64,000 bases of DNA from Candidatus Bathyarchaeia archaeon (GTDB taxonomy: Archaea; Thermoproteota; Bathyarchaeia; 40CM-2-53-6): positions 8,110-72,109 of the forward strand of contig DASRSU010000008.1 of assembly GCA_035656295.1 (NCBI GenBank), read 5' to 3'. A program made the translations under genes and the position numbers. Within the stretch, counting starts at the first letter, position 1; each line of letters opens with the position of its first letter. Under the pieces are notes generated by a model that saw only the letters and a program-made list of their open reading frames with translations, had not been told where the DNA came from and ran no database searches. Shown piece after piece: positions 21,398 through 50,085 of the stretch.

Positions 21398-21478
21398 GTT
21401 TCGGTTGTGAAAACAGTACACGTCATAAGTCTATCTTGACCACAAGCCTCGCTGTTCAGAAATGCTAGCAACGATTCT

Positions 21479-21910
21479 GTGTCTCTCATGAGAGGCCCCT
21501 CATTATCGAGGGTGTCGATTAGGGACTTCACCCCAAGAACCTACGGAGGTAACGATATCGAGAAAAAGATAGTAATTCGGGACAAGCTTCGTTCGAAAAT
21601 AGGCGACCTAGACTCTCTGAGGAATGTCTGCCGAGGGAAGTCCATTTCACTTGAAGTCTGTTTTTATCTATATGGAAAGTCTTTGGTCGAAAGCAGAGCG
21701 AAAAAGGATTTGGACAACTTGCTCAAGATACTATTGGACACGCTGCCAGACTATATGGACCGCGCCAAAACCGTGAGAGGTCTGGGCCTAATTGAGGAGG
21801 ATAACGATTACTTGGTCTTCGAAATTCATGTGATCAAGAAATTTGTAACAAAAGAAGCTGATGCAGGGCTGGACTTGGAAATATTCGAGTGGCGAGCTGA
21901 AAACATGTGA
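21479..21910 (+). CDS. rusA: RusA-like Holliday junction resolvase
   Basis: SLEVCFYLYG...KKDLDNLLKILLDTLPDYMDR...GLIEEDNDYLVFEIHVIKK matches the RusA D..D..K..D(D) pattern. Confidence 0.6.
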   Translation: MSLMRGPSLSRVSIRDFTPRTYGGNDIEKKIVIRDKLRSKIGDLDSLRNVCRGKSISLEVCFYLYGKSLVESRAKKDLDNLLKILLDTLPDYMDRAKTVRGLGLIEEDNDYLVFEIHVIKKFVTKEADAGLDLEIFEWRAENM

Positions 21911-21955
21911 AAAATGGATATTTGTTATGAAGACGGATTTGAACAGTTCTGCTCT

Positions 21956-22489
21956 TCACCTGAGTAGGTCCCAGTTATTCCAACACTTGTCAATTGACTC
22001 GGTCGATACTCTTGCTCGTAGCAATGCCTCTCCCCCTCGCCCCGACCCACGATGCCTAAGTTGAAACTTCTTCCCTAAGGGAAAGCCGGCTTCAAATTTG
22101 ACCAGTCGTCCCTGACAAGTTCCGACGAATTGACTTTGGAATAGTTTCAGGAGTTCTTGGGCGCGAAATACCAGAAAGCCTGTTGGTGGGTGCCCTTCCG
22201 CCAGGACATAGAACATGTCGGGTTGAGTGCTGTCTTCTTTCAAGTGTCTTTGAGAAATGTTGTTGAACCAACTTCCACCAGTTGGATAGATTCTTGATGT
22301 CTTGACCTGAATCTTCCTTAACTTTTGTTCTTTAGTGAGAATAACCAAGTCAACGCCAGTATCAGCCGCAGGACTGTAGACGTTCCCTATCCAACTCTTT
22401 GAGAGCAATTGAGCCATGACGGCATACTCTCCCATTCGCCCCAGCTGTTGGGATCTGCCTCTCCCGCTTACAGTGTCTTCCTCACTCAT
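21956..22489 (-). CDS. PD-(D/E)xK nuclease-superfamily protein (Hjc/restriction-endonuclease-like fold)
   Basis: GRMGEYAVMAQLLSKSWIGNVYSPAADTGVDLVIL...KIQVKTS fits the G..E...x..D-x(n)-D..-(E/Q)xK core. Confidence 0.45.
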   Translation of the reverse strand: MSEEDTVSGRGRSQQLGRMGEYAVMAQLLSKSWIGNVYSPAADTGVDLVILTKEQKLRKIQVKTSRIYPTGGSWFNNISQRHLKEDSTQPDMFYVLAEGHPPTGFLVFRAQELLKLFQSQFVGTCQGRLVKFEAGFPLGKKFQLRHRGSGRGGEALLRARVSTESIDKCWNNWDLLR

Positions 22490-22524
22490 GACAAGGATGA
22501 TGTGGACAAATCTTTATTCTGTTT

Positions 22525-22845
22525 GTGGTACTGCAAGTTCCCATGGAACGAAGAAAGACCGTGAGAAGCAAGTATTGGCACGCTCCTTCAAAGGAGACTC
22601 AAAAATTGGTGGAAGCAGAACGGCGAGAAGGTCTTACACCGTTAGACCCGGAGATTTGTTCGGCAATTCGGAAGTTCGTGCGTAAGGAATTCGGATTCGC
22701 ACGCTTCACAATGCACTATGTAGATGATGGAGGGACAAGAAATTACACCTCATATGTGGTACGTGCCTTGTCCAACAAAGTCAATGCATCGAAGCACTTT
22801 GACCTTCAAATGCAATTCATGTTGAACAGTAAGGGCGTTGACTAG
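22525..22845 (+). CDS. hypothetical protein
   Basis: 106-aa basic ORF; no family recognised. Confidence 0.3.
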   Translation: MVLQVPMERRKTVRSKYWHAPSKETQKLVEAERREGLTPLDPEICSAIRKFVRKEFGFARFTMHYVDDGGTRNYTSYVVRALSNKVNASKHFDLQMQFMLNSKGVD

Positions 22846-23043: not shown

Positions 23044-23907
23044 TTATGGTTTCGCTTGAACTGCGCTTCTCTTCAGGACGCTCCAAAGAGTAGCCAGGTT
23101 ATGCTCCCAAGCATCTTTGCCGCCCGTTTCGATGCTTACAACGATCTTCAGAAATTCTTCTACTTCAAGCGGGACAACCCTGTAGTCATTGTCCCTGCCC
23201 ACCGTGACGAGGATCGTCTGTGTTTTTGCCTCAATCTTTGGGGCTATGAAAACGCCTGATACAGATTTGTCTCGATAAGTCTTCCTGGCATCTTCAATAT
23301 GATCAGGAACAGACGCAGCCTCCTGATTCCATTGTGCTCTTCCTCTTAGAAGGGTAGTCTCCACAACATACACGTTGTTGCCCTGAAAAGCCATTATGTC
23401 GGGCAGTTTCTTTCCAGTCTGTTCCGAAATCTTTTGGGCAGGAGTTGGAAGACCCCACTCTCCGGTCTTGCCGTTCCAAACAACATCATCAAACACGGTT
23501 CCTTTGAATACACGTAAGACCCGAAAGACTAATTCTTCCAGCCTTCCTCCAGCAACCCACCGTAGAGTTTTGGGGTCACTTTTCTCGGTCCCATTTTTCC
23601 ATTCCAACCTAGTCTGAAGGTCTGAATCTGCTTTCTTGGTCACAAGTTCCCGAATCCAGAGTGACAATAATTCGACTGTATCTACCTGGGCGGGCAGGCC
23701 CTCTTCTAGGGATATGGAGAACGTTCTATGCTTCGAGTCAGGTCTTATCATCGCTTTGGATATGGCCTGCCCGTCAGCTGGGCGGATTACTTCAATCTCG
23801 TATTCGCTATTCTCATACAGGCTGAAAATGGCGGAACCATCCTCGTTAGCAAATTGAACCGATTCAGGCTGTTGACCGGACTTCTTTGACTTTGACGACA
23901 AATCCAC
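23044..23907 (-). CDS. restriction endonuclease, C-terminal part (putative catalytic domain), GTG-initiated ORF continuing 23864..24751 in another frame
   Basis: 287 aa. The ORF opens right after an in-frame TAA (~23933). The combined length with the upstream ORF (~580 aa) matches AlwI-family enzymes, so a single gene split by a frameshift is likely. Confidence 0.4.
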   Translation of the reverse strand: MDLSSKSKKSGQQPESVQFANEDGSAIFSLYENSEYEIEVIRPADGQAISKAMIRPDSKHRTFSISLEEGLPAQVDTVELLSLWIRELVTKKADSDLQTRLEWKNGTEKSDPKTLRWVAGGRLEELVFRVLRVFKGTVFDDVVWNGKTGEWGLPTPAQKISEQTGKKLPDIMAFQGNNVYVVETTLLRGRAQWNQEAASVPDHIEDARKTYRDKSVSGVFIAPKIEAKTQTILVTVGRDNDYRVVPLEVEEFLKIVVSIETGGKDAWEHNLATLWSVLKRSAVQAKP

Positions 23908-24751
23908 TGGCTGTGCCCGAGGCGGGCTGGAGTTTTATTTCTACCTTCTGAGGTGGGTGATCACGTGATGTATCTCCGAAATATTCGAACCACTCTTCTT
24001 CATCTCTCCAATCGGTTTTGACATCAATCCGCTCGGAAAGGAGTGACTTTACCTCAGGTTCTTTGCCCGGTGTGATGCTAAGCTGTTGCGTCTTTGGGTC
24101 GAACGTGCATAACCCAGTGGCGAGAATGTAGGGTCTAAGATGTTCTTCGTACTCGTGAATACGAGTATATAGCAGGCCGGTAGACTGTTCCTCTTGGTTT
24201 CTGGCGTCCAGCTTGCGGAAGTCCAATATTGCGTTCCTAACCGTGTCCAGTTCACTCTGTTCCGCTGACATGGTTCGCCAAACGAACAGCGCGGATTCTC
24301 TTTCATGAAGTGACCCAAGCTCGGTCAGAAAATAGAGAATAGTTCTGAAAGGAAATAGCTTGATAGATCGGGTGTAAGGAGCCACGTGGCCCTGTGCCTC
24401 ATATGGATTAGGGTATTGCCACTTCAGGAGCTGAAGCCGTAAGACCTCTTCGACTTTTCCATTGACGAAGAGAGCACCCGCAGGCGTAATAGTAAGAAGT
24501 TCTTCTCGCACCCATGCGAGTCCAAAGTACTCAAATGTTGCGAGTATCGCTCTGGAGGAGCGCTCATCAGAGATTTTGGACACAACGAGTTTCTTCTTCT
24601 GAAGGAGTGTCTTGTAGTAGATTTGCTTCGGCCTCCAAGGCTTACCAGCAAAATCTCTCCCTGCGAGAATACTCAGGGCCAGTCGGGTTTTTTCAACATT
24701 AGTCCACCGCTTGTTCGCGTGCCAGTGCGGATAGTCAGGTCTCTTGGGCAC
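23864..24751 (-). CDS. restriction endonuclease, N-terminal part (AlwI/N.BstNBI-family-like)
   Basis: Immediately downstream of and co-directional with the methyltransferase. N-terminal region (...WRPKQIYYKTLL...SRAILATFEYFGLAWVREELLTITPAGALFVNG) resembles the N-terminal region of AlwI-family type IIS enzymes (similarity recalled from memory, not run). It overlaps the next ORF by 44 nt in another frame. Confidence 0.4.
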   Translation of the reverse strand: MPKRPDYPHWHANKRWTNVEKTRLALSILAGRDFAGKPWRPKQIYYKTLLQKKKLVVSKISDERSSRAILATFEYFGLAWVREELLTITPAGALFVNGKVEEVLRLQLLKWQYPNPYEAQGHVAPYTRSIKLFPFRTILYFLTELGSLHERESALFVWRTMSAEQSELDTVRNAILDFRKLDARNQEEQSTGLLYTRIHEYEEHLRPYILATGLCTFDPKTQQLSITPGKEPEVKSLLSERIDVKTDWRDEEEWFEYFGDTSRDHPPQKVEIKLQPASGTASGFVVKVKEVRSTA

Positions 24752-24780: not shown

Positions 24781-26145
24781 TCACTTTCTGAAAGTCATGA
24801 CCCATTCAGCGGACATCTTCTCAGATGGACGCATATCATGCGGCCGCATCATAAGGACAGACCCGAAGCTGTCAACTCGCGCAAAACCTAGTTCTTCGGC
24901 TATCTGTCCTATGACTGTGTGCGTGGGGACCGGAATTTTCCTAATCAAGTTGTCAGCAATAGCGTAGCAGAAATGCCCCTCATCCACCAAGACTCGCTTG
25001 ATCTCCAACATTGTCTCCCGCATGTCTCGGAAGAATTGATAAACGACGTACGCTCTCTTTTTGTCGATACTCCATAGTTCCTTGAGGATCGAGTCTAGAA
25101 GTTCGTTTCCATATTTCGGCATCTTGGAGTAAAGAGTTGCAGGAGCCTGTTCATTGCCGATATATGCGCGTTTGAGCTCTCCTAGAGGCCCTTTCCAGAA
25201 ACCAAACCAATACAACTGGAGTTGGTGGGCCCGAGGATAATCAACCGCATTCAGATACGGCGGAGATGTCATAACGAGATTTACTGTGCGGTCTGCCAAT
25301 TGAATCATTCTTGCATCTTCGCCGATGATTTGCGCAAGACTTTCCTTGCTGCAGGCCTTAGAGAATGCTATCATCTTAGGAACCAAGACATTGGTCCGTT
25401 CAATGAAGATCTTCTTGGCGTCGATAGCTCTTTTCGTCTTGGCCCTCATATGCCGGCTTATAGCAAGAGCATAGAGGAACTTAGGGTCAGCATTTGAAAC
25501 CTCTTTCAGAATCGAAGATAGAACGACGAGAAAGAATTCACGAACATCTCTATCCTCAATACGCAGAATAGCGGCGTAGATTATCCCTAGATCCTCTAGA
25601 ACATCGCCTCTGAACCAGTAATCTCGGTTAGGAAAGGAGGGGATTTCAGACTGATTGCTTTTGACAATCTCGTTGAACAGTTTGTTCTGTTGACTTCTTA
25701 GCTTGATCTCGTCAAGGGGAGTCGTTTTGACTTTGGCAAGCAGTCTTGCAAGAGGATCTACATCGATCGCGTAAGAATTCCTTGCCCATAGCTTAGCTTC
25801 TACGTTTGTGGTACCACTTCCACAAAAAGGATCAAGAACAACATTTCCTCTTGTCGTGAATTTGTGAATAGCCCATCGGGGAATTTCTGGTATGTACTTA
25901 GCAGGATACTTGTGAAAACCATGGGTGTAGTTTGACCTGTCGAGACTCACAATTGAAAGCAGTTTTCCCTCGAATACTCTCTCGGTCGATATGTCGCCCT
26001 CAATTGTCCCGGTGAGTGTTTGAGCAAACTTACGCCTCTGCTCTTTATCGTCGAATACATACTGGAGTAACCCTCCCCCTGTGGGTTCGTTGTTCTCAGA
26101 CATGAGTCTGGGCCCTAGCGTTTCAAATGGTTTTGTTAGAGCCAT
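24781..26145 (-). CDS. DNA methyltransferase, N6-adenine/N4-cytosine class (N6_N4_Mtase family)
   Basis: HKYPAKYIPEIPRWAIHKFTTRGNVVLDPFCGSGTT (AdoMet motif) and NLVMTSPPYLNAVDY (catalytic S/D-PPY). Confidence 0.85.
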   Translation of the reverse strand: MALTKPFETLGPRLMSENNEPTGGGLLQYVFDDKEQRRKFAQTLTGTIEGDISTERVFEGKLLSIVSLDRSNYTHGFHKYPAKYIPEIPRWAIHKFTTRGNVVLDPFCGSGTTNVEAKLWARNSYAIDVDPLARLLAKVKTTPLDEIKLRSQQNKLFNEIVKSNQSEIPSFPNRDYWFRGDVLEDLGIIYAAILRIEDRDVREFFLVVLSSILKEVSNADPKFLYALAISRHMRAKTKRAIDAKKIFIERTNVLVPKMIAFSKACSKESLAQIIGEDARMIQLADRTVNLVMTSPPYLNAVDYPRAHQLQLYWFGFWKGPLGELKRAYIGNEQAPATLYSKMPKYGNELLDSILKELWSIDKKRAYVVYQFFRDMRETMLEIKRVLVDEGHFCYAIADNLIRKIPVPTHTVIGQIAEELGFARVDSFGSVLMMRPHDMRPSEKMSAEWVMTFRK

Positions 26146-29593: not shown

Positions 29594-30235
29594 CTATCTC
29601 CTGAGACGTTCACGATCGATGAGGATCTCGAGATGCCTCTTGACTGCAGCAGCCGTCTGTTCGGGGTTGCCGGATCCCTGGATTGTGATGTTGGCCGTCA
29701 CGTTGCTTCCACTACTGATCGGGCTCATGTTGTAGGTTCGGACGTCCATGCCTCCTTGTCCTGGACTAGTAGATGGCCCGGAAGGAGTCGTGGTAGTCCC
29801 TCCGCTTCCCCCGGGATTCTTTGAAATGTACTGTGAGAGTCCCCAGGCTGTGAGAGCTGCTACCGCTCCAGCCAAGAGTGCCCATCCTAGTGGACCGGCA
29901 AGAGCATCAGCAACCGCAGTGGCAGCGTTCATAATGTTCTGTGCGGAAGCTGCCGCGAGAATTGCAGGAACAAGTCTTGCCAAGACATTGATCATTGTCC
30001 CAGCAGCTGCAATGAAACCGAAGACTCGATCGAGAGACTGTGCCGTCTTCTTGTCCAGGAGGCCGAACTGTTCGGCTAGATTCGTGACGAAGAGGCCTGT
30101 TCCACCGAGAACTGCGATCGCTCCTCCTAAGGCGCGTACTTTCGACTGGATAGTGTCAGTTACTTGGCTGACATGGTCGATGCCGCGGAAGATGATGCGT
30201 AGATCGTGTACTGCACCGATAGCGCCGAGACTCAT
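29594..30235 (-). CDS. tail-associated Ala/Gly-rich hydrophobic protein (short tape-measure-like?)
   Basis: 213 aa with Ala-rich helices and a Gly/Ser/Thr/Pro linker; position between tail fibres and tail assembly genes. Confidence 0.3.
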   Translation of the reverse strand: MSLGAIGAVHDLRIIFRGIDHVSQVTDTIQSKVRALGGAIAVLGGTGLFVTNLAEQFGLLDKKTAQSLDRVFGFIAAAGTMINVLARLVPAILAAASAQNIMNAATAVADALAGPLGWALLAGAVAALTAWGLSQYISKNPGGSGGTTTTPSGPSTSPGQGGMDVRTYNMSPISSGSNVTANITIQGSGNPEQTAAAVKRHLEILIDRERLRR

Positions 30236-30607: not shown

Positions 30608-30901
30608 CTAGGTCGATAAAAAAGCAGATTCTGACCTGGAAACGTCGTTCAGCTTCATTGTCTCCTCCATCAGTTTACGCATGAGTCCATGTGGGAGATC
30701 CGCCATTTTCTCCTTCGACAAGGTTCCGAGCGGGCTTGTGCTGACGCTGGCTAGAACGAGATCTTCAATGTATTCCGTAGGATCCTTGGCCTTGATGGCT
30801 TTGCGGAGGAGCTCGCGGCCCAGCTTCCAGGAAATAGTGGACACTACGTAGATGCCCGCGTATTGCTCACCGTACTCCTCCTTGTTGATTTCTAATTTCA
30901 T
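30608..30901 (-). CDS. hypothetical virion assembly protein
   Basis: 97 aa; stop/start overlaps 30898..31521. Confidence 0.3.
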   Translation of the reverse strand: MKLEINKEEYGEQYAGIYVVSTISWKLGRELLRKAIKAKDPTEYIEDLVLASVSTSPLGTLSKEKMADLPHGLMRKLMEETMKLNDVSRSESAFLST

Positions 30902-31521
30902 TGTCTCTTCCTAGCTGCACTTTTTTTCGGAACGTATCCTGGAGGCCTTTGCTGCCGAGGTTTACGCGGGCCCGTGCGCTTCTGTCCTGGTTTCTTGACT
31001 GGTTTCTGAGGCTGTGCTGCAGCGGGCTTTGCGGCGATTGTTGCTCCAAGCGCTACTACTCCAGCAGCCACTGACAAGCCGGCTAGTAATCCGAGAATGT
31101 TGAGGCCCGTATCCCCGAGATCTTCCGGCTCGCCACCACCAGTTGATCGTGGAAGCAGCCCATCAAGTACCCGGTCGACCTCCTCCATGATCTGCGGCTC
31201 GATCTCCTGCGCAGCAGGACCTAGGAAAGGTTGGGCAGCCATTCTATTGGTGCCGTACTCAACATAGGTTGCATACTCTGCTTCTGCACGTACCTGGATA
31301 GGTGCAAATGCTTCTTTGACCTCAGACTGCTCGCCGAGCTCAGCGTGAATGCTAGCCATCAAGTGTCCTGTTCTGACTGGTGCGAGTTCCCGGGCCCTCT
31401 CCGCTAATCTCACACCCCCATTCTGGAGAACCTGCTGTACCCGGACAAACATCTCCTGCGGAAGAGTCTGCAAGAGGCGTGAAATGTCACCGCCGTTTTC
31501 GATTTCGACTTGTAAGCTCAC
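30898..31521 (-). CDS. HK97 gp10-like tail/virion morphogenesis protein with basic C-terminal tail
   Basis: ELAPVRTGHLMASIHAEL...TYVEYGTNRMAAQPFLGPA resembles the HK97 gp10 family signature (..TG.L..S......YA.YVE.GT....A.PFL.PA). Confidence 0.45.
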   Translation of the reverse strand: MSLQVEIENGGDISRLLQTLPQEMFVRVQQVLQNGGVRLAERARELAPVRTGHLMASIHAELGEQSEVKEAFAPIQVRAEAEYATYVEYGTNRMAAQPFLGPAAQEIEPQIMEEVDRVLDGLLPRSTGGGEPEDLGDTGLNILGLLAGLSVAAGVVALGATIAAKPAAAQPQKPVKKPGQKRTGPRKPRQQRPPGYVPKKSAARKRQ

Positions 31522-31525
31522 ACTA

Positions 31526-32242: not shown

Positions 32243-33121
32243 TCACGTAATTGTCACGGTCTTCGCCGTGAAGGCATACTTCTCGTAGACGACCTCTGTC
32301 GGGTCAAACTTCCACGACTCGAGTCGTGTAATGTAGCAGCCTGACAATGTCAACGTCGAGGTCGCGCTCTTGAGGACCCAGCTAATCGTATTGGACGTGG
32401 CGTTGGTGAGATTAGTGTACTGGCCGGTGTCTTCCCAGATGATCGTGAATGTGCCGTTGATACGGCGCTGTTTTGGGGGCATGAACTTTTGCTGTGACTG
32501 GCCGAGAACGTGCAGCTTCTCCACGTTCCGTTCGAAGGTTACCTGAATCTCCCGGACGTCAGGATTAGCGGCACCGATCGTGACCGGGTTGACGCCTCCA
32601 TCGTAGAAGGACCAGGGTGTCACGGCCGGATCCGTTGCATAACTGCCTGAGCCGATTGGAGTACTAGTTGACGGGACAGGAATCGATTTTGCGGTAAGCG
32701 TGCACTTGACCTTAGTCAGGTCCCCGTATCTCGAGGAAATTGTCAGGCTGCCTACTCTACTGCCGAGCAGCTGGACAAAGTTTTCGGTTCCAGACATTTT
32801 CGCGGAGAAGAGTATGCTGAGACTCTTGTCAATCGTGCCAGTACCTCCACCTTGACTACTGATGGCGTATTTTGCGAAGGTAGAGCTCGCCATGGCGTAT
32901 TCCATTTCCATCGAATAGGTCTCTGCGCCTTTGAGAATGTAGACGAGATCTTCAACGCCAAGCTGTGGTACGAGAATGTTCTGCATGTCAGCCTTGACGT
33001 CAGCATTGCCTATTGGTGCGATCCAGGACATTGCCGGATTCGTTGGAAAGACGCCATAGCTGGCTTCTTCGGCATACTGGAGGTTCTTGACAACTAGCCA
33101 GCCTCCGCTGGGACTTGACAT
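32243..33121 (-). CDS. putative major tail / tail tube protein
   Basis: 292-aa beta-rich protein upstream of the gp10-like and tail-fibre genes; positional inference only. Confidence 0.3.
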   Translation of the reverse strand: MSSPSGGWLVVKNLQYAEEASYGVFPTNPAMSWIAPIGNADVKADMQNILVPQLGVEDLVYILKGAETYSMEMEYAMASSTFAKYAISSQGGGTGTIDKSLSILFSAKMSGTENFVQLLGSRVGSLTISSRYGDLTKVKCTLTAKSIPVPSTSTPIGSGSYATDPAVTPWSFYDGGVNPVTIGAANPDVREIQVTFERNVEKLHVLGQSQQKFMPPKQRRINGTFTIIWEDTGQYTNLTNATSNTISWVLKSATSTLTLSGCYITRLESWKFDPTEVVYEKYAFTAKTVTIT

Positions 33122-33125
33122 TTTG

Positions 33126-33965
33126 TTACACTCTGTTGAAGATTAGGATTTGACGGAAGGCATGGCGCTTCTGGCCCATCTTGACCTTGACCGAGTTGTG
33201 GCTTGTTCTGAATGGCAGGAGCGAGAAGCGCTTGTAGAATTCGCGGATCTCTGGCGTATCATCATAGGTCATGATGAACTTGCCATGGATCCCGGCCAGC
33301 AGCTGTGCTAGATCCTTGTGGTCTTGTTCTATGAACGAGTAGTAGCCCTTGCTGACAGTTGAAAGATATGGCGGGTCTAGGAAGAATAGTGTTCCAGCAC
33401 TATCCCAGTTTCTGATGCACTTTCGAAAGTCGAGGTGGTCGATGTTGACGGATCTAAGCCGTTGGCTGAGATAGGCGACACGGCCTGCGATGTTCGTCCA
33501 GCTTGCAGAGCCGCCATGGGCCCCAGAACGATCAAAACGCCATCCTTTAGTGGGATCACCGACAAAAGCGCTGGAGATCGTGTAGGCGGTTCGTACTGCA
33601 GCTTCGACACGGTCAAGGCCAACTGTTTCGATGTCCTCTTCCAGCTGATCTCTCCACTCATAGTACAATTGCCTGCTGTAGTGGAGCCAGCGACATTTCT
33701 CGAGGAACTGAACCGGACTGTTCCTGACCGTCTCGAAAAAGTTGACAAGCCATCCGTTCCGGTCATTGTAAACTTCAATCTCGCTCGGCGGTTTTGCTAG
33801 GAGAACGCTGGCGGCGCCGCCGAATACTTCAACATAGATTTTGTGGGAGGGGAGTAGTCCCGCTATCTTCGGGGCCAAGCGGTATTTCCCGCCTCGCCAG
33901 GGAAACGCTGCGATTCTCTTGCACGCGCTGCTTCCAGTAGCGATGACAGTATCTAGCAAGATCAA
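33126..33965 (-). CDS. dam: Dam-type (D12 class) N6-adenine DNA methyltransferase
   Basis: FPWRGGKYRLAPKI, EVFGGAASV (AdoMet site), FFLDPPYLSTVSKGYY (DPPY). Confidence 0.8.
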   Translation of the reverse strand: MILLDTVIATGSSACKRIAAFPWRGGKYRLAPKIAGLLPSHKIYVEVFGGAASVLLAKPPSEIEVYNDRNGWLVNFFETVRNSPVQFLEKCRWLHYSRQLYYEWRDQLEEDIETVGLDRVEAAVRTAYTISSAFVGDPTKGWRFDRSGAHGGSASWTNIAGRVAYLSQRLRSVNIDHLDFRKCIRNWDSAGTLFFLDPPYLSTVSKGYYSFIEQDHKDLAQLLAGIHGKFIMTYDDTPEIREFYKRFSLLPFRTSHNSVKVKMGQKRHAFRQILIFNRV

Positions 33966-34200: not shown

Positions 34201-34692
34201 CTAGGAAGTACTCATTTCGAAGATTTGTCCGATGATGCGGGCTTCCACGTGTAATCGTGGAGGATCTCTATCGAGCTCGCTGCGGTCCTGCCAGGGTCCA
34301 AGGAGGATGTGTTGTATTCCGCTCCCGGCTGTCTCGCCCTGGATTCGAATTATGCGCCGGATCTCCTGCAACATATTGTACAAGCTAGTGTGCGCCTGCT
34401 CGATCGTCAGCTGCGGGTTTGGCAGGATCCAGACGTGAACGGCCATGTTCTCCGGATTATGGTATTTCGTGATCGTGCCCAGCTGCAGGGCCCGGTAGGG
34501 CTTGTTGAGTGGCCGAACAGTGATCTGGAATGGATGAAGCCGCAGCGGTGCGTATGCATACCACCGGTTTGTGAAGTGGACCTTGGTAGGATCCTGTGTC
34601 GCTGCTGTTGCAATGTCTTTGTTTGGTGAGGTTGCTGTCCAGTTGTTGTAGAGCAGGTTGGCTACTGCAACAATCGGTTCTACAGTGCTCAA
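34201..34692 (-). CDS. hypothetical virion protein
   Basis: 163-aa ORF in the operon. Confidence 0.3.
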   Translation of the reverse strand: MSTVEPIVAVANLLYNNWTATSPNKDIATAATQDPTKVHFTNRWYAYAPLRLHPFQITVRPLNKPYRALQLGTITKYHNPENMAVHVWILPNPQLTIEQAHTSLYNMLQEIRRIIRIQGETAGSGIQHILLGPWQDRSELDRDPPRLHVEARIIGQIFEMSTS

Positions 34693-37569: not shown

Positions 37570-37571
37570 GA

Positions 37572-39378: not shown

Positions 39379-41576
<2,198 letters not shown>

Positions 41577-41580
<4 letters not shown>

Positions 41581-42010: not shown

Positions 42011-42208
42011 TTACAGCTTGGTCGAGATTCCGGCTAGAACGTGCTCGAGGAGCAGTCCGAGGAACAATACTAGAGCAGCAGCTGAGCCAGCTGCAAGGCC
42101 CGTAGTAACCGGGATTCCAAGCAGTGCTAGCCATGCAGTGAGAGCGACGGTCTCTACGATAGTGAAGAGAACAATCACGGCCAGTGCTTTACGATCTAAC
42201 AGTTTCAA
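42011..42208 (-). CDS. small 2-TM membrane protein (holin-like topology)
   Basis: 65 aa, two hydrophobic helices. Confidence 0.3.
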   Translation of the reverse strand: MKLLDRKALAVIVLFTIVETVALTAWLALLGIPVTTGLAAGSAAALVLFLGLLLEHVLAGISTKL

Positions 42209-42806: not shown

Positions 42807-43496
42807 TCATGGAACTCCCATGTAGATCGCCAGAATGCTTCCGGCGCCAGTGTACACGGTGCATCTTGGTCTGAAGTACCTGAATGGTCGTGCGATTGCA
42901 TCTACCGAAAACTTGTAGGTACCGGAACCATCCGTGTTCGTATGAGTAAGTATCGTCGACCAGTTAGCGTTGTCAAAGGAGCCTTCTAAAATGACGGTCC
43001 ATGTTGTAGCGCCACTGTTGATTACTACAAACCCATAATATTTTGGGTTCCACCCAAAAGCGGTGAAGTCAAGGCTGACCCCCGTTCCAGTAGCAGTAAA
43101 TGTGTTTTGTTGTGGCGTAGCAAAGCCCGGTGGAAATTGTATTCCGGGAGTAACGCTGAGGATGTTTGTCGAAACAGTATTGAAAACTTGGACTGGTAGA
43201 TCCATCAACGCGGGCGTAAGCGCATCTGGAACTCCGGCGATGCCGCCAACCGTTGTACCATCGAGATAACTTGTCGCTTTTGCTAGCGTCGGCCAGTTCT
43301 GTGCCCCCGAATTGCCTTGGTTCGCAGTAACGGTGCCGGAGGAGATGGTCGTGCTAACAAGGGATACTGTCTGCGTACCACCGGGAATATTGCGGACGAC
43401 TAGAGCCTGCTCGTTACCAACGATCGCTGTCCCTTTGACCGCGGCGAGATTCGCGCTTGTCGTAGGGTCGCCGATTACAACAACATCCATCTCCAC
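42807..43496 (-). CDS. hypothetical virion protein (beta-rich, 229 aa)
   Basis: Gly/Thr/Asn-rich ORF between the portal and protease genes. Confidence 0.3.
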   Translation of the reverse strand: MEMDVVVIGDPTTSANLAAVKGTAIVGNEQALVVRNIPGGTQTVSLVSTTISSGTVTANQGNSGAQNWPTLAKATSYLDGTTVGGIAGVPDALTPALMDLPVQVFNTVSTNILSVTPGIQFPPGFATPQQNTFTATGTGVSLDFTAFGWNPKYYGFVVINSGATTWTVILEGSFDNANWSTILTHTNTDGSGTYKFSVDAIARPFRYFRPRCTVYTGAGSILAIYMGVP

Positions 43497-43750
43497 GACG
43501 ACAGAGTTGGCGGTAACTTCGCGGGTGCGGATTTTCTTGCCGGTATTGTCTGGAGCTACTTGGACGTATTTCTCGGACGTATGGGTTCTTCCCCTGGCTT
43601 CTTAGCCTCTTCTAGTGCTGAATGTTCAACGACCTTGACCTGGACCCATTTCGGGACCACTTTCGCCTGAACGATGATGAATCCATAACCGCATCCACAG
43701 GGGCAGAACGTGATCTGAGAATTTTCTGATTGACTCACAGATCCAGCCTT

Positions 43751-44113
43751 CTAATCACCGAACACGTAGAATTTTCCTTCCAGGGCAAAGTCGAATCGGA
43801 GATCTTCCTCTGCCTTGGCCATGTCCCAGACGATATCCACGGGGATAACTTGGCTGGGCTTGATTATTCGCTTGTCAGCGTTCAGAGCGACTGACAGGTC
43901 GACTCTTGTAGTGACGCGTATGTTGCCGATGTAGTAGGTGCGGTCTCCCTCGTTCTTGAGGTAGAGCTGGAATGTTTTCGTGCCGCCTTCGACATAGCTG
44001 ACTTCGCCTAGATCAACTGGTATCGGCTGCTCGTTTTCGTCGCGGACGTGTTCGACTGGCTGCTTGCAGGTCTCATCCCAGTACATGCGCAGCTTGACTT
44101 TTCCAGGCGCCAC
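43751..44113 (-). CDS. hypothetical head-morphogenesis protein
   Basis: 120-aa ORF immediately downstream of the portal region; a 60-aa CPCGCG zinc-ribbon ORF (43556..43738) follows. Confidence 0.3.
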   Translation of the reverse strand: MAPGKVKLRMYWDETCKQPVEHVRDENEQPIPVDLGEVSYVEGGTKTFQLYLKNEGDRTYYIGNIRVTTRVDLSVALNADKRIIKPSQVIPVDIVWDMAKAEEDLRFDFALEGKFYVFGD

Positions 44114-44116
44114 TAC

Positions 44117-45915
44117 TTCCTCTTCCTCTCAACAACGTATTCCCGGCCGGTAGGAGTACGGATCTTCAACGTCTCCGCTGCGGGATCTTTGGGTTGATCG
44201 TTCAGTGGTTTCGGGACTGCCTGGGGCTGGAACATCGTTCCCTGACCAGCCTCCTCCGGGATCTGCAATCTCTCGCGCACGTATTCCTGGCTGACTATTC
44301 CTCGAGTATAGAGATCTGCTAACGGTGCCTCGTTGGCCCGCCAGTCTTCAGGCGTGATTTCTTTGAAGTTGAAAGTAATGTCTTCCTTGTCGGTCGGCGA
44401 GTCTTTCGCTGCCGGGACGTTGGCTGCTTGTGGTTTTGCTACTTTCTTGGGGGTTGAGATTGTACGTCTACCTCTGGTCCATCGCCAAGCTGTCTACCAG
44501 GACGCAGGTTAAGCAGAATTCTCGGAATCACGTAGTCCATGTGGAGCTGCTCTAGCTTCTCCTGGTTCTCTCGAGTCTCGTCTTCCATCAGTTCGAAGTT
44601 GAGGCTTCCCCACTTGATCTCCTGACCTCCGCCCAGAGTTGCAACTGTGAGAGGGATGCCCATTCCCAGAAGGACACGTTCCTTGTACGCCTGGAGATAG
44701 TTGGCCACACTGTCGCTGGTTCCGCCGGCTTTGTAGAGCTCTTCGCCTTTGACGAGAAAGTTGACCCAGACGTCCTCGCCCTGCTGACGATTTTCGATCG
44801 TAGTCTTCTGGCGCAGAATGTCATCGGTTGCAGGAATACTAGAGACCTGTTGGTGGGTCTCGTCAAAGTACGTGCCTCCAAAGTTCCACACAATCGTCTT
44901 GTCGCCTCTCTTGCCAACGATCGTGGGCAAGTACTGCAGCATTACGAGGTAGCCTTTCAGCGCGAACAATGTTTCGCGGAAAGTACTGTAGCCGTAGATG
45001 CCGCCCGTTATCTTGTTGAACTGGAGACACAGCATCTGATCCGGGTGAAAATCAATCTCCGTCTCGCTACCGATTACTGCAGTCGGTGCAAGAGGCCCGG
45101 ACCATCTCCGCTGAATATACTTGTCCACAAGAACTGTTGCGCGGTCCTTGTCCCACTGCTGTGGCTGGATCTGGATACGGAACGTTCGTGGATCCGTGTT
45201 CTTGAGACCATAGAACTTGGTTGCAGGAGTGAAGCTTACGAGTGGTCGCGGCGCGTAGGTGATGTTACTGCCCTGGTATCCGACTCCTTGGGCAACGTCA
45301 GCAGCGTTTGAAAGACTCCAGGTTGCCGTGCTGTCGTCTACGGACTCAATGTACGCATTGCCCCAGATCAGCGCGTTCTTCGTCGCTTCGAATAGTGAGT
45401 GCTTGATCTTGAGCCGCTTGTACTCTTTGAGAATCTTGTCGGTCAGCTGGTCGCTGCCACTGTTGATCTCAAAACCCGGTTTCCAAACTTGACGAGTTTT
45501 GAGCTTTACCGCGTATGCAACTTCGGGAACGAACAGATATGCGTCGAGGCTAGAGGAGCTTTCTTAGAGCTCTTACTCCCAATACCAACCCCAGTCGTTT
45601 AGCCCTGCTTGGTTTAGCAGACTGGCCAACCGAAGGTTGGTGCATACTGTCCGAGAACGGGCGTCGTGGCTGCAAGGGCGCGATCGTCTTCTCGAATCTT
45701 GGTCCTAACATGCTCAGCGAGTTTCTGACTCGCGACCTGCGGAGAATATTCCCAGCTGTCCCCAAAGCCAATGTCGCTGTTGCGAACATAGCCCTGCTGG
45801 ATGAAACGTATTGGAACCTTCTCAATTATTCTGTTGAAGTCGGGCAGAACGGATGTTGAGAAGACTGGGGTGGGGAGGGTGTTTCGCCCTGGTGTCCGTT
45901 TTTTAAGACCGAATC
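44117..45915 (-). pseudogene. portal protein, reading frame broken at least three times
   Basis: Hand translation gives portal-like segments in different frames, from N- to C-terminus. First, frame q (~45915 to TAA ~45613), ...DFNRIIEKVPIRFIQQGYVRNSDIGFGDSWEY...PVLGQYAPTFGWPVC*. Second, frame c (opens ~45562, ESSSLDAYLFVPEVAYAVKLKTRQVWKPGFEINSGSDQLTDKILKEYKRLKIKHSLFEATKNALIWGNAYIESVDD...ATKFYGLKNTDPRT), switching at ~45176-45186. Third, the listed 229-aa ORF 44439..45128 (...RIQIQPQQWDKDRATVLVDKYIQRRW...GGGQEIKWGSLNFELMEDETRENQEKLEQL...). Fourth, the C-terminal frame 44117..~44490 (...ITPEDWRANEAPLADLYTRGIVSQEYVRERLQIPEE...). None of the upstream segments has a canonical start. Confidence 0.55.
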
Positions 45916-45930
45916 TTTCTAGGAACCTCT

Positions 45931-46394
45931 TTGGTAGATGTAACAGTGCTCACCTCCGACGTGATCGTGAAGTCTTGGTCTGAACCCGAGAAATCCTGGC
46001 TCGCCTGTGCTATCGACAGCGAAGGATCTATCAATTTCCGTCCTGACAAGAGGCACAAGGAAACAATGAGTTTCTCCGTTTGGTTCTGCAATACCAATCG
46101 GCCATTCGCGCACACGTTCGCCAAACTGACTGGAGGGACGCTCTTTTCGCGCGGCCACCGCGCGGTTTCGGCAAGAAGATGCAATTCGAGGTCTATGTGA
46201 CCTCCAAGGCGCGGGTTGGGAAGCTGCTAGAAGCAGTGCTTCCGTATCTGATTGTAAAACAACAACGCGCTCGCGAACTGCTAGCCTGGATCCGTCAGCA
46301 TCCAGAGACTAGAGCCGACAGAATCGTCAGGTTGAACCGGACGCTTCCTCGAAACGAGGCCGGTTCAAACATGCCTCTAGCATCGTCCTACTGA
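45931..46394 (+). pseudogene. LAGLIDADG-family homing endonuclease (single-motif type), frameshifted near 46105-46135
   Basis: KSWLACAIDSEGSINFRPDKRHKETMSFSVWFCNTNRPFAHTFAKLTGG (LAGLIDADG-like motif WLACAIDSEGS). The C-terminal half continues in the +1 frame (FGKKMQFEVYVTSKARVGKLLEAVLPYLIVKQQRARELLAWIRQHP). The break lies at a cttttcgcgcggccaccgcgcgg run. Sits on the opposite strand between the portal and TerL genes. Confidence 0.6.
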
Positions 46395-47864
46395 ACATAC
46401 GTGCCGTCTGCTTTCTTGTGACCGCAGATACAGTCAGTGTTGGGTGGATTCCAGCGTCCACACCAAGTGCACAACACCTTGCCGTGCTTTGTGTTGTCAT
46501 TGTCCCAGGGCTTCTTGGGCCCATTGTCGAATTCGCCCGGTCGCTTGCTCAGATATACTGTGTAATCGATGGGCTTGTTCTCAGGCCTTGAAGCGTACAC
46601 TGCCAAGGCGAACGCCCACAGCTGATCGTCATGTGTCCCGGCGGGGTGAGAGAACTGCATCTGCCCGGTCTTGGTGAGTTCGTACCTTTCCAAATTTAGC
46701 TGGTTGATCAAGTCCTGATCATAGAACACCGCAGCTTTTCCTTCTTGCATCTGTTTCTTGAGATACACCATGATCTGCTGTTTCTGGGGCAGGGAGAGCA
46801 TAACGCCCTCCGAATTTTTCAATCCGGCTTTCGCGGCTTCCTCCACGAAAACTTCGCCAACTCCAGTTTGATCAATGAGGATGCGGACGACTCGGTCATG
46901 TTTCTGATTCGCAAGAGACAGCCAGCCGAGGACCGTCCCATATTCAGTGCCGAGTTTGAACTGTTTCACCTTAACTAGAAGTGCCTGCCCAGCAATCTTC
47001 CGGACTACTGCGATCACCGAATGATTACGCTTCTGGCCAAGGTCTACGCCAATGTAGAACTCGCCATGTTTAGCGTCCTCAGTCGCTGCTGGTGTAGAAG
47101 TCGTCGGGTATAGGCTCCAGATCTTGTCTTATCGATTTGGTGATGAGACTCATTGGGAGCCAGGCGTCTTCGTCTTCGGCGAACTCTGCTTCCATCTCTC
47201 TTTGCCAACGCCACGGATCAACCGACTCAATCTGTTTGCGCAGTTTCTCCAGAATCTCCTCTTTGAGGGGACCGTTGGGTTCGAGGGCTTCACGCCAGGA
47301 AATGTGATGTCGTGAGACATCTCCGTAAGTATCGTTGTCGGTACACATCCGATAGAAGACGCTGTCGCGGCTTCCAGGTGTCGAGGTGGCGAGAAACTTA
47401 CCGTTAGTGGTGGCCAGCGTAAAGACGACTGCGTCGAGTAGATCTGCGTCGTCCCGTACGAAACCGTATTCGTCGATGAATACGAGATTGACTCCGGGCT
47501 CGCCACGTATCGTCTCGGGATTGTTGGGGAAGGCCTGGACGCGGCTGCCGTTGTGGAATTCGATTTTTGTTTGGAGCGGTTTCGGGGCCACATATTTGGG
47601 TAGACGCCTCAGGAAACTAGAAATTTTTCGAATGATGATCTTGCTTTGCCGAAGTGAGGGTGAGACGACTAGGACATTGAATTCACGGTTGCGTAGGCAC
47701 TGAAAGAGTATCAACGCTGCGATGATGTGGCTTTTGCCGCTTTGTCGACACCAGCGAATGACAATGAACTGTGACTTGTCATTGAGAACTTTGTTTTGGT
47801 ATTTTGTGGGTTTGAATGACAATAGTTTCTCGCAAAATTCTACTGCCTCCTCCGGGACATTCAA
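46388..47864 (-). pseudogene. terL: terminase large subunit, ATPase and nuclease domains in different frames (break ~47054-47100)
   Basis: ORF 47079..47864 has Walker A VIRWCRQSGKSHII, Walker B LVFIDEYGFV and an ...AEFAEDEDAWLPMSL end. ORF 46388..47017 is the RNase-H-like nuclease (IDQTGVGEVFVEE, HDDQLWAFALAVYA). The nuclease frame extends upstream with no start (STPAATEDAKHGEFYIGVDLGQKRNHSVIAVV) and overlaps the ATPase ORF end (PDDFYTSSD*). Confidence 0.85.
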
Positions 47865-47889
47865 GCCCTTCTTGCGCGCAAGGCGTCCT

Positions 47890-48204
47890 TCAATCTCGTG
47901 CTTGAGGTTGTGCGTCTCCGTCTCGAAGCTCTTCGACCATATGTCTGAGTTCCGCGAGCTGTCTCTTCGCGACGTTGTTGTCCACGTTTTTCATTAGTCC
48001 GTTTAGGGTTTGTGCAAGATAGGCCAACACGCTATACCAGCTAGTCCTCTGGTTTGCTTCGTACTCCGGTTCATTAGGATTGGTTGGGCCTTTACGCTTA
48101 GTTGGGCCCTTGGCAAGCATCGCTGCTGTTCTGATCGCTTCATGGAGAGTATTGATGATCTCTCGCCTGATGGTTTCAGTAGTGGGACTTCGTTTTTTCG
48201 GCAT
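47890..48204 (-). CDS. putative terminase small subunit (positional)
   Basis: 104-aa ORF immediately upstream of TerL in the same orientation; basic N-terminus (MPKKRSPTTETIRREIINTL...). Confidence 0.3.
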   Translation of the reverse strand: MPKKRSPTTETIRREIINTLHEAIRTAAMLAKGPTKRKGPTNPNEPEYEANQRTSWYSVLAYLAQTLNGLMKNVDNNVAKRQLAELRHMVEELRDGDAQPQARD

Positions 48205-48604
48205 TCAATGAGGCCTGCCAAAGAAGACTCTCAGCCAATCCAATTTGTCGAAGTAATTGTGAGATCAACCGTGAATTAGGTGCCTGCGCAGGTGTCTGCG
48301 GCTGCGTCATCCACGTCCTCGCCCTTTACCGTGATGTATGTTGGTATGTTTCCTAACAAGTTGCAATATTGTAAGATTCATGATTGTCGCTATCGCACTG
48401 AATGCGCTGTTGATCAATATCCCGTCGTGGCCTGTCAGTGTGCCCGCGATTGTGATCGCTGTAATGCCGAGAATCCCCGAGCTACCGAGCATTACTATGT
48501 TGTCCACCAAGATTGAACGCCGAACCATTTCAAGGAGAGACAATTACTAAACCCCGGATGATCTCGACAAAAAATTGGGGAGCCCAGTTCTTCGGACTTG
48601 GTGC

Positions 48605-48814
48605 TCAATACACTTTGCGGTCTCGGAGGAATTTATCGATGAACAGAAGGACCAGCGCGAGGAATGGCACGCCTCCAATCGTGGGTTCTGCCTGCAATCC
48701 TGGAATCAAAGTCTGGAGAAATGTGGCGATGGCTGCTGCGATTGCGACCCGTAGAATTCTTAGGAACGCTCTGAAGCTCGGATAAGCTAGGGCCTTCTGC
48801 CAGAGAGTATTCAC
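48605..48814 (-). CDS. small membrane protein
   Basis: 69-aa 2-TM ORF near the presumed right end of the provirus. Confidence 0.25.
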   Translation of the reverse strand: MNTLWQKALAYPSFRAFLRILRVAIAAAIATFLQTLIPGLQAEPTIGGVPFLALVLLFIDKFLRDRKVY

Positions 48815-50085
48815 TTCTTTGGCTATGCTTAATGTCTACACCTCCAATCGGGTTTTGGTCGCGCGACGGCCAATAGGTCGCGGTCGTAGCCAGGTGAACT
48901 GATTACCTCGCCAACATCAACATCTAGGAGGACACTCTCAACGAGTGAGACAATCTCGCCGAGTTGCCGGTCCCTGAATGTGTTTTGCCGGACCTGGCGA
49001 ACCTCTTGGTCTAGAATTTGTTGTATGCGAGTTTGTCCTCTGATTGTTGGTCCCTCCCCGGTTATTCCGGGCGAGGAGAATCGCTGGCATCACGCCCGAT
49101 TCGGCGTCTACAGCGTTTGTCCGTCGCGGTTTTTCCGCAGACCACTATATGTCGACGGAAATATATTAGGAGAGGCCGCGCAAAAAACCACCGTCCGGGA
49201 TTATCTGGGATTTAATCGAGCCTCTGAGATTCATTCCTTGAACTGTTTCAGATATCCTAACTCGCTTAATCGTTCTCTTACCAATCTTCGTATCAAGAAA
49301 CTTAGCTGATGTTCTCCAATTGCTTCGGAGTACGACCGCAAGGCGTTCCATACATCTGTAGGCATTCTCAGGTGAACCTCAGCCCTCAGTCGGTTTTCTG
49401 GATTGTAAAGCGGGGGTCTTCCTCGCCGCCTAGCTGAGGAAATATCCGATTATCTGCACCGACTTATCTATGGTAACCCTTCGGAAAACATTTTCTCGAC
49501 AACGAAGACCAAGAAGACTAGAACAGATGCCGGGAATATTACTGTCTGCGGCTGAAAAACATCACGCAATTCTCTTCAAAATGAGGATCTTCAGCCGACT
49601 TGAACGCGTCTACGTCAATTCGCGCAAGGCTCTATCAGTATACCACTATTTTTCCTTGTGATTCTCAACTCTATTCCAATCAATGGTTCCGCCATTTCTC
49701 TCGGCAGGTAAACAAAGTAGGATTTGTAGACGTACTCTCCTTTTTTTCTTGTCATGTAGATTTTCCTGTAAGTCTTTACCTGGATCTTAGGCAAGGTGCG
49801 TTCCTCAACGAGACTTCATTGCTGAATACGGAGCTGGCCGACCATTAAGCGAAAGATAGGTGCAAAAGTGACCTCTTGCCAGCGTGGGAAAGGTAAGTTT
49901 TACCTGTCAAACTGTACCCAAATGAACCTGATCCACCACTCGAACGGGTTGATTTCAGCCTTAATCATGTGATCCCAGCTGACTTTAGGCGAGTCATGCA
50001 AGGGGTAGGGGGTGGGGGTCAACCAAAATCATGAGCGAGCCTTGGTAAGGTTAAGGTAGCCCAGACCTTCTGGTCAGGGTTCTTC

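Follow-up and report, generated by a model that had tools for sequence, protein, structure and literature searches.

Why is the portal gene of an archaeal provirus spread over three reading frames? The provirus lies in a 64,000-nucleotide stretch, hereafter the window, of a Candidatus Bathyarchaeia metagenome-assembled genome (MAG); the contig that bears it (DASRSU010000008.1) is 1.05 Mb long. A first-pass annotation of the window had recognised an integrated head-tail provirus at this locus. My reading, to which I give a probability of about 0.7, is that the element is the provirus of an HK97-lineage tailed virus in the chromosome of a soil Bathyarchaeia host and that it carries three bulge-helix-bulge (BHB) mini-introns, of which two interrupt the portal gene and the third interrupts a small upstream gene referred to here as gene X. 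The coordinates of all features are collected in Table 1.

Relatives of the portal gene were gathered by a pattern search of metagenome contigs for the coding sequence of the peptide QYAPTFGWP. This gave 27 loci, of which 26/27 were portal genes and one (L031) was a chance match. The L-numbers denote the related loci compared with the window. The closest one with sequence available is L002, an NCBI MAG contig whose major capsid protein (MCP) is 75% identical to that of the window. L002 has an uninterrupted portal of 575 aa, and the window portal matches it in three frames with two in-frame stops. The first two breaks are short, discrete inserts, A and B. A 23-nt insert lies directly after TTCGGTTGGCCAG, and a 24-nt insert lies directly after TGGGAGTA. 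When insert A was removed in silico, the peptide WPDDWG appeared, which matches the intron-less alleles. With insert B taken out, TA|C is joined into the Tyr codon of WEYLDAY, a conserved peptide. The spliced window portal is an open frame of 487 codons, 59% identical to residues 49-477 of the L002 portal, with the predicted peptide FGWPDDWGWYWEYLDAYLF. Since the L002 portal itself matches phrog_9232 'portal' (9.7e-9), the window gene was assigned to the portal family. The portal of a distant relative, L011, gave 1.2e-7, and phrog_12 at 5.9e-7. The portal label of the first-pass annotation is thus supported by way of the relatives; a profile search of the portal against the PDB gave nothing meaningful.

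What kind of element are these inserts? Their borders were set purely by comparison with intron-less alleles, that is, by protein homology. It was found that four exon bases lying two upstream of the 5′ border pair with four intron bases lying two upstream of the 3′ border (for example, GGCC/GGCU, GACG/CGUU, GACG/CGUC, and GGAG/CUCU), and that an inner hairpin of 4-6 bp begins one base inside the intron. Such pairing leaves a bulge of 3 nt on either side of a 4-bp helix, with the cut after the second base of each bulge. An archaeal BHB intron is defined by a central helix of 4 bp with 3-nt bulges on opposite strands and another helix on one side or both. The BHB introns of the archaeal cbf5 gene, which are 16-44 bp in length, are cut between the second and third bulge residues (PMC2738675). 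Thus, the borders derived from homology coincide in silico with the cbf5 cut rule. In window introns A and B alike, 4/4 central pairs form and the inner stem is 5 bp long. At the three sites of the window, including the one in gene X, the predicted junctions are TTGGCCAG^ACGACTGG, TGGGAGTA^CCTCGACG, and ATTCTCCTC^CCAACAAT, and the predicted junction reads are TTCGGTTGGCCAG|ACGACTGGGG, TATTGGGAGTA|CCTCGACGCA, and GCGATTCTCCTC|CCAACAATCAG.

The cut rule was also applied where the borders had not been fixed beforehand. At site 2, which is common to the window and L026, it rebuilds the Tyr codon of WEYLDAY as TA|C in the window and as TA|T in L026, whose insert is also 24 nt long and differs in sequence. 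At two more breaks of L026 (26 nt and 23 nt in length, with a 4/4 central helix each), it yields the continuous peptides ...SLFALKGYL... and ...LPTIAQKRAD.... L011 has a 29-nt insert at 6378-6408 with 4/4 central pairs and a 9-bp inner stem, and its removal gives PQFGWPDDWG. The motif did not fit a second, longer insert a few codons downstream in L011.

How specific is this geometry? A central helix with 3/4 or more pairs and, directly next to it, an inner stem of 4 bp or longer were found in 8/10 alleles at the homology-derived borders, in 0/10 when both borders were slid by 1-4 nt, and in 0.08% of shuffled inserts. Over 12 alleles, 101 of the 115 helix positions are Watson-Crick pairs, 9 are G-U pairs, and 5 are mismatches. 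The inner stem shows compensatory changes between lineages (CUGCU/AGCAG, GUCGC/GCGAC, CCGAGU/ACUCGG, GAGCU/AGCUC, and GACAG/CUGUC). A blind solver that lists all frame-restoring excisions between two anchor peptides returned the three window introns as its best solutions with scores of 9, 9, and 8, and it recovered the positive controls. The same solver and BHB search found no credible solution at the TerL frame change, the portal break around aa 470, the AlwI split, and the frameshift of the homing endonuclease gene (HEG), all of which are described below. A 22-nt BHB candidate at 42325-42346 was rejected; its splicing joins no open reading frames (ORFs).

The inserts are not peculiar to the window. 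Six portal alleles are intron-less (L002, L033, L036, L038, L039, and L040). At the place of the first window insert (site 1a), other alleles have inserts of 21-23 nt, and at a place 6 nt further on (site 1b), there are inserts of 22-26 nt. In total, at least six insertion sites were found across the relatives. The most inserts were found in the L026 portal (JACXTT010061105.1), which has four of the BHB type at sites 1b, 2, 3, and 4. All of the inserts shift the frame or contain a stop codon, and the unspliced ORFs end after 11-13 codons. After splicing, 23/24 intron-bearing copies that reach a stop codon on their contig give ORFs of 387-477 codons. L026 gives 245 codons when spliced at the first sites only, and it becomes open once its two further introns are also removed. 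The exception is L029 (Ga0209469_1027674), in which a deletion of about 11 nt around codons 235-245 removes QFLP and shifts the frame; in contrast to the intron-type breaks, this is, judging from its sequence, a truly damaged copy or an assembly error. It is probable that a family of tailed viruses of soil Bathyarchaeia routinely carries BHB mini-introns in structural and small early genes, with up to four per portal gene and at least six sites, and that these introns have been gained and lost.

The interruptions could also mean that the provirus is cryptic and decaying. In that case, the hairpin inserts would be inactivating mutations like any others, and no virions would be made. This is the strongest of the rival explanations, and I consider it unlikely. 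In alleles that all have the site-1a insert with its in-frame TAG, the dN/dS ratio of nonsynonymous to synonymous substitution over the downstream 385 codons is 0.04-0.08 at dS values of 0.08-0.8. A gene cut at 12 codons would not show such purifying selection; therefore, the insert must be removed or skipped at expression. Decay also fits poorly with the exact BHB geometry and with the retention of the hairpin inserts as a class in many independent contigs. On the other side, the L029 portal does have a true frame-shifting deletion, and several other genes of the window are irregular, as discussed below. Reassignment of stop codons was considered for the in-frame stops and was set aside; the breaks are frame changes and mixed stop codons, which the inserts account for.

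Is the portal the only gene with such an intron? In gene X, the conserved coding frame, recognised by 3-periodic substitutions in exon 2, is +1 relative to the ATG of the gene. When 22 nt are excised under the cbf5 cut rule, the ATG and the conserved coding region come to share one frame in the window, in L017, and in L021/L034. The frame is also restored in L013, which was worked by hand and has a compensatory stem (CCCGU/ACGGG). L023 and L045 have an extra C in the 5′ bulge, giving a 23-nt intron, and the frame is still restored. Overall, a 79-aa ORF starting at the ATG is obtained in six lineages. The gene X case, as far as its sequence goes, appears somewhat weaker than the portal cases. 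The gene X product has no Pfam match.

The start of gene X has another feature. About 95 nt around it are almost invariant across lineages whose proteins are just about 50% identical. In the alignment (L034 around 880-960 and the equivalent positions), the columns of the leader are invariant without a 3-base periodicity. The leader forms the hairpin CGCUG-UAG-ACGCC...GGCGU-GAUGC-CAGCG, with the GUGAUG start region on the 3′ strand. It could be a protein-binding site, a translational control element, or a packaging site.

Based on these results, the following mechanism may be proposed. In the transcript, each 22-24-nt insert would fold together with its flanking exon bases into a BHB motif. The host tRNA-splicing endonuclease would cut between the second and third bases of each 3-nt bulge, and a host RNA ligase would then join the exons. 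The outcome would be an uninterrupted portal mRNA of 487 codons and the 79-aa product of gene X. EndA is generally regarded as universal in archaea.

Some observations weigh against this reading. Both the cleavage and the ligation are inferred from DNA, and the host genes for the splicing endonuclease and the ligase lie outside the window. Compact BHB patterns arise by chance at a rate of one in about 800 nt (155 in the 64-kb window, both strands), so that the motif alone proves nothing. Some alleles are imperfect; L023 has 2/4 central pairs, and the inner stem of L021 includes an A.C mismatch. The gene X intron, with an inner stem of 5 bp, pairs at 3/4 of the central positions, an alternative register exists for it, and no intron-less gene X allele was found among the relatives.

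Could the ribosome skip the unspliced inserts instead, in the manner of the programmed translational bypassing of T4 gene 60 and the mitochondrial byp elements? As in those systems, the inserts are short, form hairpins within a conserved ORF, and sometimes have a stop codon at or near the insert start, right after the last sense codon (GAG-TAA in intron B). Unlike those systems, the inserts here interrupt single codons, namely that of a conserved Asp (G|AC) at site 1a and that of a conserved Tyr (TA|C or TA|T) at site 2, and only a join between nucleotides brings these codons back. There is no matching pair of take-off and landing codons, and the junctions obey the BHB cut rule of the endonuclease to the single base. 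Bypassing is thus very improbable, and splicing remains the preferred explanation of the inserts.

The introns leave several irregularities of the provirus unexplained, and these also count against the reading proposed above. First, the ATPase half and the nuclease half of TerL, the terminase's large subunit, lie in different frames (+1), and the GVDLG motif with the catalytic Asp lies upstream of the first canonical start of the nuclease half. The +1 change is located just past LEPIP(D/E) in the window, L002 (around 1880-1930), and L026, while a change in the opposite direction was found in L003 and L008. A frame change in the TerL linker thus occurs in 5 of about 30 relatives, whereas most others have one continuous ORF. 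Both halves are about 61-66% identical between the window and L002. Since the change is common to a subclade and both halves are conserved, decay has the same likelihood as programmed +1 recoding or the production of two separate polypeptides; the frame change may be a second, separate recoding event. Its presence in the window, L002, and L026 indicates that it is old and tolerated, which does not favour decay.

Second, three reading frames have no canonical start codon. Portal exon 1 lacks an in-frame ATG, GTG, or TTG both in the window (45949-45990) and in L033 (776-900), which is 75% identical. In both of them, portal exon 1 is overlapped by a short ORF in another frame that does have a canonical start. 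Because the missing start is found in L033 as well, it also speaks against decay of the window copy. The C-terminal piece of the portal (44113-44493) has no canonical start in the window, and the head-tail adaptor gene has a CTG in place of the ATG or TTG of its relatives, for which reason it was skipped by the ORF lister. The separation of the C-terminal piece was first suspected to be damage at around aa 470 of the portal. This was rejected; the intron-less L038 portal stops there too, and L013 and L017 have the C-terminal piece as a separate downstream ORF with its own ATG.

Third, the AlwI-type nuclease gene is split, and the HEG is frameshifted with intact homologues in the relatives. Both are compatible with decay. 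The morphogenetic module, which had been described as complete-looking, is therefore complete in its hallmark genes, but the portal, TerL, adaptor, and nuclease genes are not plain ORFs. The gene set is complete, and the virion competence of the window copy is uncertain. Decay of this copy may still be true alongside real introns.

Where does the element begin and end? Nearly every gene from about 21.4 to 49.8 kb is on the minus strand. Family searches placed the thermosome gene in the left flank and the genes for GTP cyclohydrolase II (ribA), a RibD_C protein, the large subunit DP2 of PolD, and a Y-family polymerase among the flanking host genes, in agreement with the archaeal flanks (thermosome on the left, ribA/PolD on the right) reported in the first-pass annotation. 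Its right limit at 48850 had to be moved. The window DNA at 48602-49189 is 70-78% identical to ten other loci, and 49685-49789 is likewise conserved. The region to the right of the putative small terminase subunit (TerS) gene seems at first sight to have no ORFs, yet segments of it are common to the relatives, and it contains gene X with its candidate intron and two small ORFs resembling regulators; therefore, the element extends to about 49.8 kb, approximately 1 kb past 48.85 kb. The GC content of the window is about 52%. On the left side, the block of restriction-modification and nuclease genes at 21-26 kb has a GC content of 0.47-0.49, compared with 0.52-0.54 in the structural module. No counterpart of this block was found in the relatives compared, none of which extends past the tail fibre genes. 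Instead of being cargo of the virus, the block may have been acquired on its own as a defence islet. I place the left end of the element at about 26.3 kb, possibly at 21.4 kb, and its right end at about 49.8 kb. The insertion site would lie between a 164-aa gene at 20927-21421 and ribA at 50086.

Since the source is a MAG, the locus might be a chimeric join of a virus or plasmid to the host, or the breaks might be indel errors of the assembly. Such an artefact is the least credible of the alternatives. A Logan contig from an independent assembly (SRR12347814) is 100% identical to the window over 18,997 bp (30086-49082) and runs on across the right junction to about 50.24 kb, inside ribA. Because it crosses into ribA, the right junction is no artefact of a single assembly. 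In addition, the same kinds of inserts recur across NCBI, JGI, ENA, and Logan assemblies.

No integrase family was found among the ORFs scanned, and neither an att site nor recognisable replication genes were found in the window. The 64-kb window contains no tRNA gene, the two ends of the element share no direct repeat of more than 12 bp, and neither the whole window nor 48.4-50.0 kb alone gave an Rfam match. The absence of a recognisable integrase, tRNA, and att repeat, already remarked in the first-pass annotation, therefore persists. The missing integrase and att site might be taken as further signs of decay and count against the provirus reading to that extent. By analogy with Nvie-Pro1, an archaeal head-tail provirus of Nitrososphaera (PMC6563490) which is likewise without them, their absence appears compatible with a provirus and does not exclude it.

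The same absence raises the question of whether the locus is a domesticated particle-forming locus resembling a gene transfer agent and maintained by the host. This has been proposed for thaumarchaeal head-tail proviruses without such genes (PMC6563490). For the present locus it is improbable. The TerL relatives, 49-55% identical, are in soil Bathyarchaeia MAGs, and none of the genes flanking the window element recurs beside a relative; L017, for instance, lies next to SBP_bac_5 and ArsB genes. Since the relatives are in differing surroundings, a mobile virus fits better than a fixed locus. The diversity of the group is also high, its synonymous divergence being saturated, and among its cargo are selfish and defence genes (the HEG, restriction-modification, and Dam genes). 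A distant relative is deposited in IMG/VR as a 27.7-kb viral contig; L011 (IMGVR_UViG_3300005573_001228) is filed as a viral contig. IMG/VR has no exact match for two conserved DNA patterns, one from the portal and one from gene X, and a scan of it with the MCP profile gave only two distant contigs. The virus group is common in soil metagenomes. Identity of the element with Nvie-Pro1 or Thermococcus TKV4 was ruled out, as its relatives are in Bathyarchaeia MAGs and its candidate protease is not fused to the MCP. In L005 (JBAZEV010000003.1, 1-6722), genes for the tail tube, a Neck1-like protein, a tape-measure-like protein, and fibres lie directly upstream of TerS-TerL. This order is permuted relative to the window, and no MCP was detected downstream. 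L005 could be a circularly permuted or rearranged relative.

Table 1. Features of the provirus and its right end, with window coordinates (from right to left)
Feature	Coordinates	Strand	Remarks
AbrB/MazE-like ORF, 46 aa	49615..49755	-	Rightmost gene common to relatives (L034, L037); MazE_antitoxin 0.038
Ribbon-helix-helix-like small ORF	49231..49449 (stop-to-stop)	-	Conserved in L034 and L017; no Pfam match
Gene X leader, nearly invariant, predicted hairpin	49091..49150	-	3′ hairpin strand contains the gene X ATG (alifold)
Gene X	48829..49090	-	Exon 1 49090-49073, exon 2 49050-48829; predicted spliced product 79 aa, begins MPAILLPTIRGQ
Gene X candidate BHB mini-intron, 22 nt	49051..49072	-	GCCCGGAATAACCGGGGAGGGA; frame-restoring excision
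Predicted membrane protein, 69 aa	48605..48814	-	Conserved in relatives; no family match
ORF at the TerS position, 104 aa	47890..48204	-	38% identical to the L002 ORF at the equivalent position
TerL, ATPase half	47079..47864	-	Pfam Terminase_6N 2.6e-8; phrog_2 3.6e-35
TerL, nuclease half	46388..47092	-	phrog_5909 9.5e-9; +1 frame relative to the ATPase half
LAGLIDADG-like free-standing HEG remnant, frameshifted	45931..46394	+	Between TerL and portal
Portal exon 1	45622..45949	-	75% identical to L033 N-terminus; frame open from 45949
Portal mini-intron A (candidate BHB), 23 nt	45599..45621	-	TCTGCTAAACCAAGCAGGGCTAA; central helix GGCC/GGCU; bulges AG|U, AA|A
Portal exon 2, 25 nt	45574..45598	-	
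Portal mini-intron B (candidate BHB), 24 nt	45550..45573	-	AGAGCTCTAAGAAAGCTCCTCTAG; central helix GGAG/CUCU
Portal exon 3, to stop codon	44439..45549	-	
Portal C-terminal piece (ORF)	44113..44493	-	Matches the C-terminal ~100 aa of fused portals (L002, L039, L041)
229-aa protein	42807..43496	-	C-terminal domain resembles 'major tail protein' phrog_9522, 1.3e-7
733-aa protein, candidate prohead protease N-domain	39379..41580	-	N-terminal ~190 aa and scaffold-like remainder
MCP, HK97 fold, 324 aa	38132..39106	-	AlphaFold 2 (AF2) model with Foldseek; profile search
Head-tail adaptor	36421..37005	-	phrog_442 1e-11
503-aa protein	34699..36210	-	No Pfam or PHROG match; no homologue in L002
163-aa ORF	34201..34692	-	70% identical to residues 1-163 of a 591-aa fibre-like L002 protein
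Dam-type (D12) adenine methyltransferase	33126..33965	-	PF02086 1.2e-20
Tail tube	32243..33121	-	Phage_tube_2 7.7e-17; phrog_290 2.3e-17
Tail completion/Neck1 (HK97 gp10-like)	30898..31521	-	PF04883 2.7e-9; phrog_5 9.4e-20
213-aa protein	29594..30235	-	Weak tape-measure-like match, phrog_1686 0.0085
Distal tail and fibre proteins of 276 and 736 aa	26298..29591	-	Homologues in L002
N6/N4 methyltransferase	24781..26145	-	Family search
AlwI-type nuclease, two overlapping ORFs	23044..24751	-	Family search
RusA-like ORF (+) and PD-(D/E)XK nuclease ORF (-)	21479..22489	both	Presumed left end

The integrated head-tail provirus seen in the first-pass annotation is borne out by the genes for TerL, the HK97-fold MCP, the portal, the adaptor, the Neck1/gp10-like protein, the tail tube, and the tail proteins. 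The gene at 38132-39106 had been called an MCP from its size. Its AF2 model (pLDDT confidence score 71) has the HK97-type MCP of Haloferax tailed virus 1 (HFTV1; 8qpq) as the best Foldseek match at 1.8e-12, and 341 PDB matches were obtained at E<=1e-3, with capsid and encapsulin proteins at the top. A profile search against the PDB also gave 8qpq (6e-6). The protein has no Pfam match of its own; 2/61 of its homologues, both distant, reach Phage_capsid_4. Among the tail proteins, the 736-aa protein (26298-28508) matches phrog_52 at 5.9e-7.

Is there a prohead protease? The 733-aa protein at 39379-41580 had been labelled as such. An alignment of the relatives shows an invariant D-H and an invariant Ser inside a conserved VSIGG/SIGG segment. 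A model of the domain (low confidence, pLDDT 59) has herpesvirus assemblins as its best Foldseek matches (1at3, 6e-3; 4v08, 2.4e-2; TM score 0.40), while no match of the N-terminal domain was found with hidden Markov model profiles, and a profile search against the PDB gave nothing meaningful. The model weakly supports the N-terminal domain as a putative HK97/assemblin-type prohead protease. After residue 190 or so, the protein continues with about 450 aa of low-complexity sequence (39379-40780), in which S, T, P, G, Q, and A are extremely abundant and a run of about 20 Glu/Asp occurs, and this C-terminal part looks scaffold-like. The relatives have similar low-complexity tails of differing sequence.

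Other labels drew no support or stayed below the threshold. The ORF at 47890-48204 has no Pfam or PHROG match, and the TerS label had come from its position. The beta-helix tailspike label of the 503-aa protein found no such match either. The RusA-like ORF remained below the threshold (Pfam 0.049, 14.7 bits against a cutoff of 22.8; phrog_34 0.025), and the 'Hjc-like' nuclease ORF matched only PDDEXK_5 at 9.3e-5, under the Pfam cutoff. For the frameshifted LAGLIDADG-like copy, intact homologues of 155 aa are present in L023, L043, L045, and L011. An intact relative matches LAGLIDADG_3 at 0.0055 and 17.4 bits, below the cutoff of 22.5. These sequences suggest that the remnant at 45931-46394 is a decayed free-standing HEG. 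In contrast, the Dam methyltransferase was confirmed, as was the restriction-modification system with its N6/N4 methyltransferase and an AlwI-type nuclease, the latter in two ORFs. Among the small right-end genes, the residue pattern of the ORF at 49231-49449 suggests a ribbon-helix-helix protein.

Two observations were made in the host part of the window. The ORFs at 3311-3892 and 10676-11212 each cover a part of a Pfam profile (N-acetyltransferase, 2-128/240; KaiC-like, 67-228/231, respectively). They could be truncated, or they could be interrupted as the viral genes are. The 2.8-kb stretch at 7844-10676 is without any ORF of 150 aa or more.

How does the element compare with known systems? 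Tailed proviruses of Bathyarchaeia have been described, namely BATPV1/2 together with 38 proviruses (PMC11705971) and Fuxivirus and Kunpengvirus (PMC10848311). As in these and in Nvie-Pro1, the genes for the HK97-fold MCP, TerL, portal, and tail tube are in the usual order and integrated in the chromosome. Restriction-modification and methyltransferase cargo is also shared with archaeal head-tail proviruses, and an att site and replication genes are as unrecognisable here as in Nvie-Pro1. Unlike the proviruses of PMC11705971, for which an integrase and a tRNA target were search criteria, the present element shows neither; unlike Nvie-Pro1, its candidate protease is separate from the MCP. As a provirus, it is an ordinary one, another tailed provirus of Bathyarchaeia. 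PMC11705971 and PMC10848311 make no mention of introns or frameshifts.

The introns resemble those of the crenarchaeal cbf5 gene (Watanabe 2002; Yoshinari 2006; Yokobori 2009; PMC2738675). Both are short, lie in a protein-coding gene, and form a BHB or relaxed BHB motif that uses exon bases. In both, the predicted cut is between the second and third bulge residues, and the patchy distribution implies gain and loss. The inserts found here are 21-29 nt in length, within the range of cbf5 introns, and both are too short to encode anything. Unlike cbf5, the genes are viral, the host belongs to Bathyarchaeia, a single gene has as many as four introns (L026), and the insertions involve six or more sites in one gene family plus a second gene. 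For cbf5, cDNA sequencing and enzyme assays have demonstrated the splicing, whereas the present introns are predicted from DNA. The archaeal tRNA introns are 11-175 nt in length (PMC2738675), and the tRNA and rRNA introns share with the viral ones the motif, the presumed enzymes, and a similar size range. Unlike them, the substrate here is the coding part of an mRNA, so that the phase and the exact junction matter for the protein.

In the literature searched, cbf5 was the only case of BHB introns in archaeal protein-coding genes, which is not proof of novelty, and no description of tRNA-type introns in archaeal virus genes was found there. A 2025 paper on archaeal splicing endonucleases also cites only the cbf5 studies for BHB introns in protein-coding genes. 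The intron-bearing viral genes appear to be a new variation on a known mechanism, which the comparison of sequences supports well.

What would this mean for Bathyarchaeia and their viruses? If the reading is true, a virus would, as far as found, be seen to carry BHB introns for the first time, and this would also be the first case in Archaea of mRNAs with several introns that are processed in this way. It would also explain why gene callers and tools for provirus completeness mark such elements as broken; the window portal was called as a 229-aa fragment. The intron-bearing and intron-less alleles would provide a natural system for studying intron gain and loss. The tRNA-splicing machinery would process mRNAs in a lineage outside the Crenarchaeota, and the expression of the virion would depend on the tRNA-splicing endonuclease and ligase of the host.

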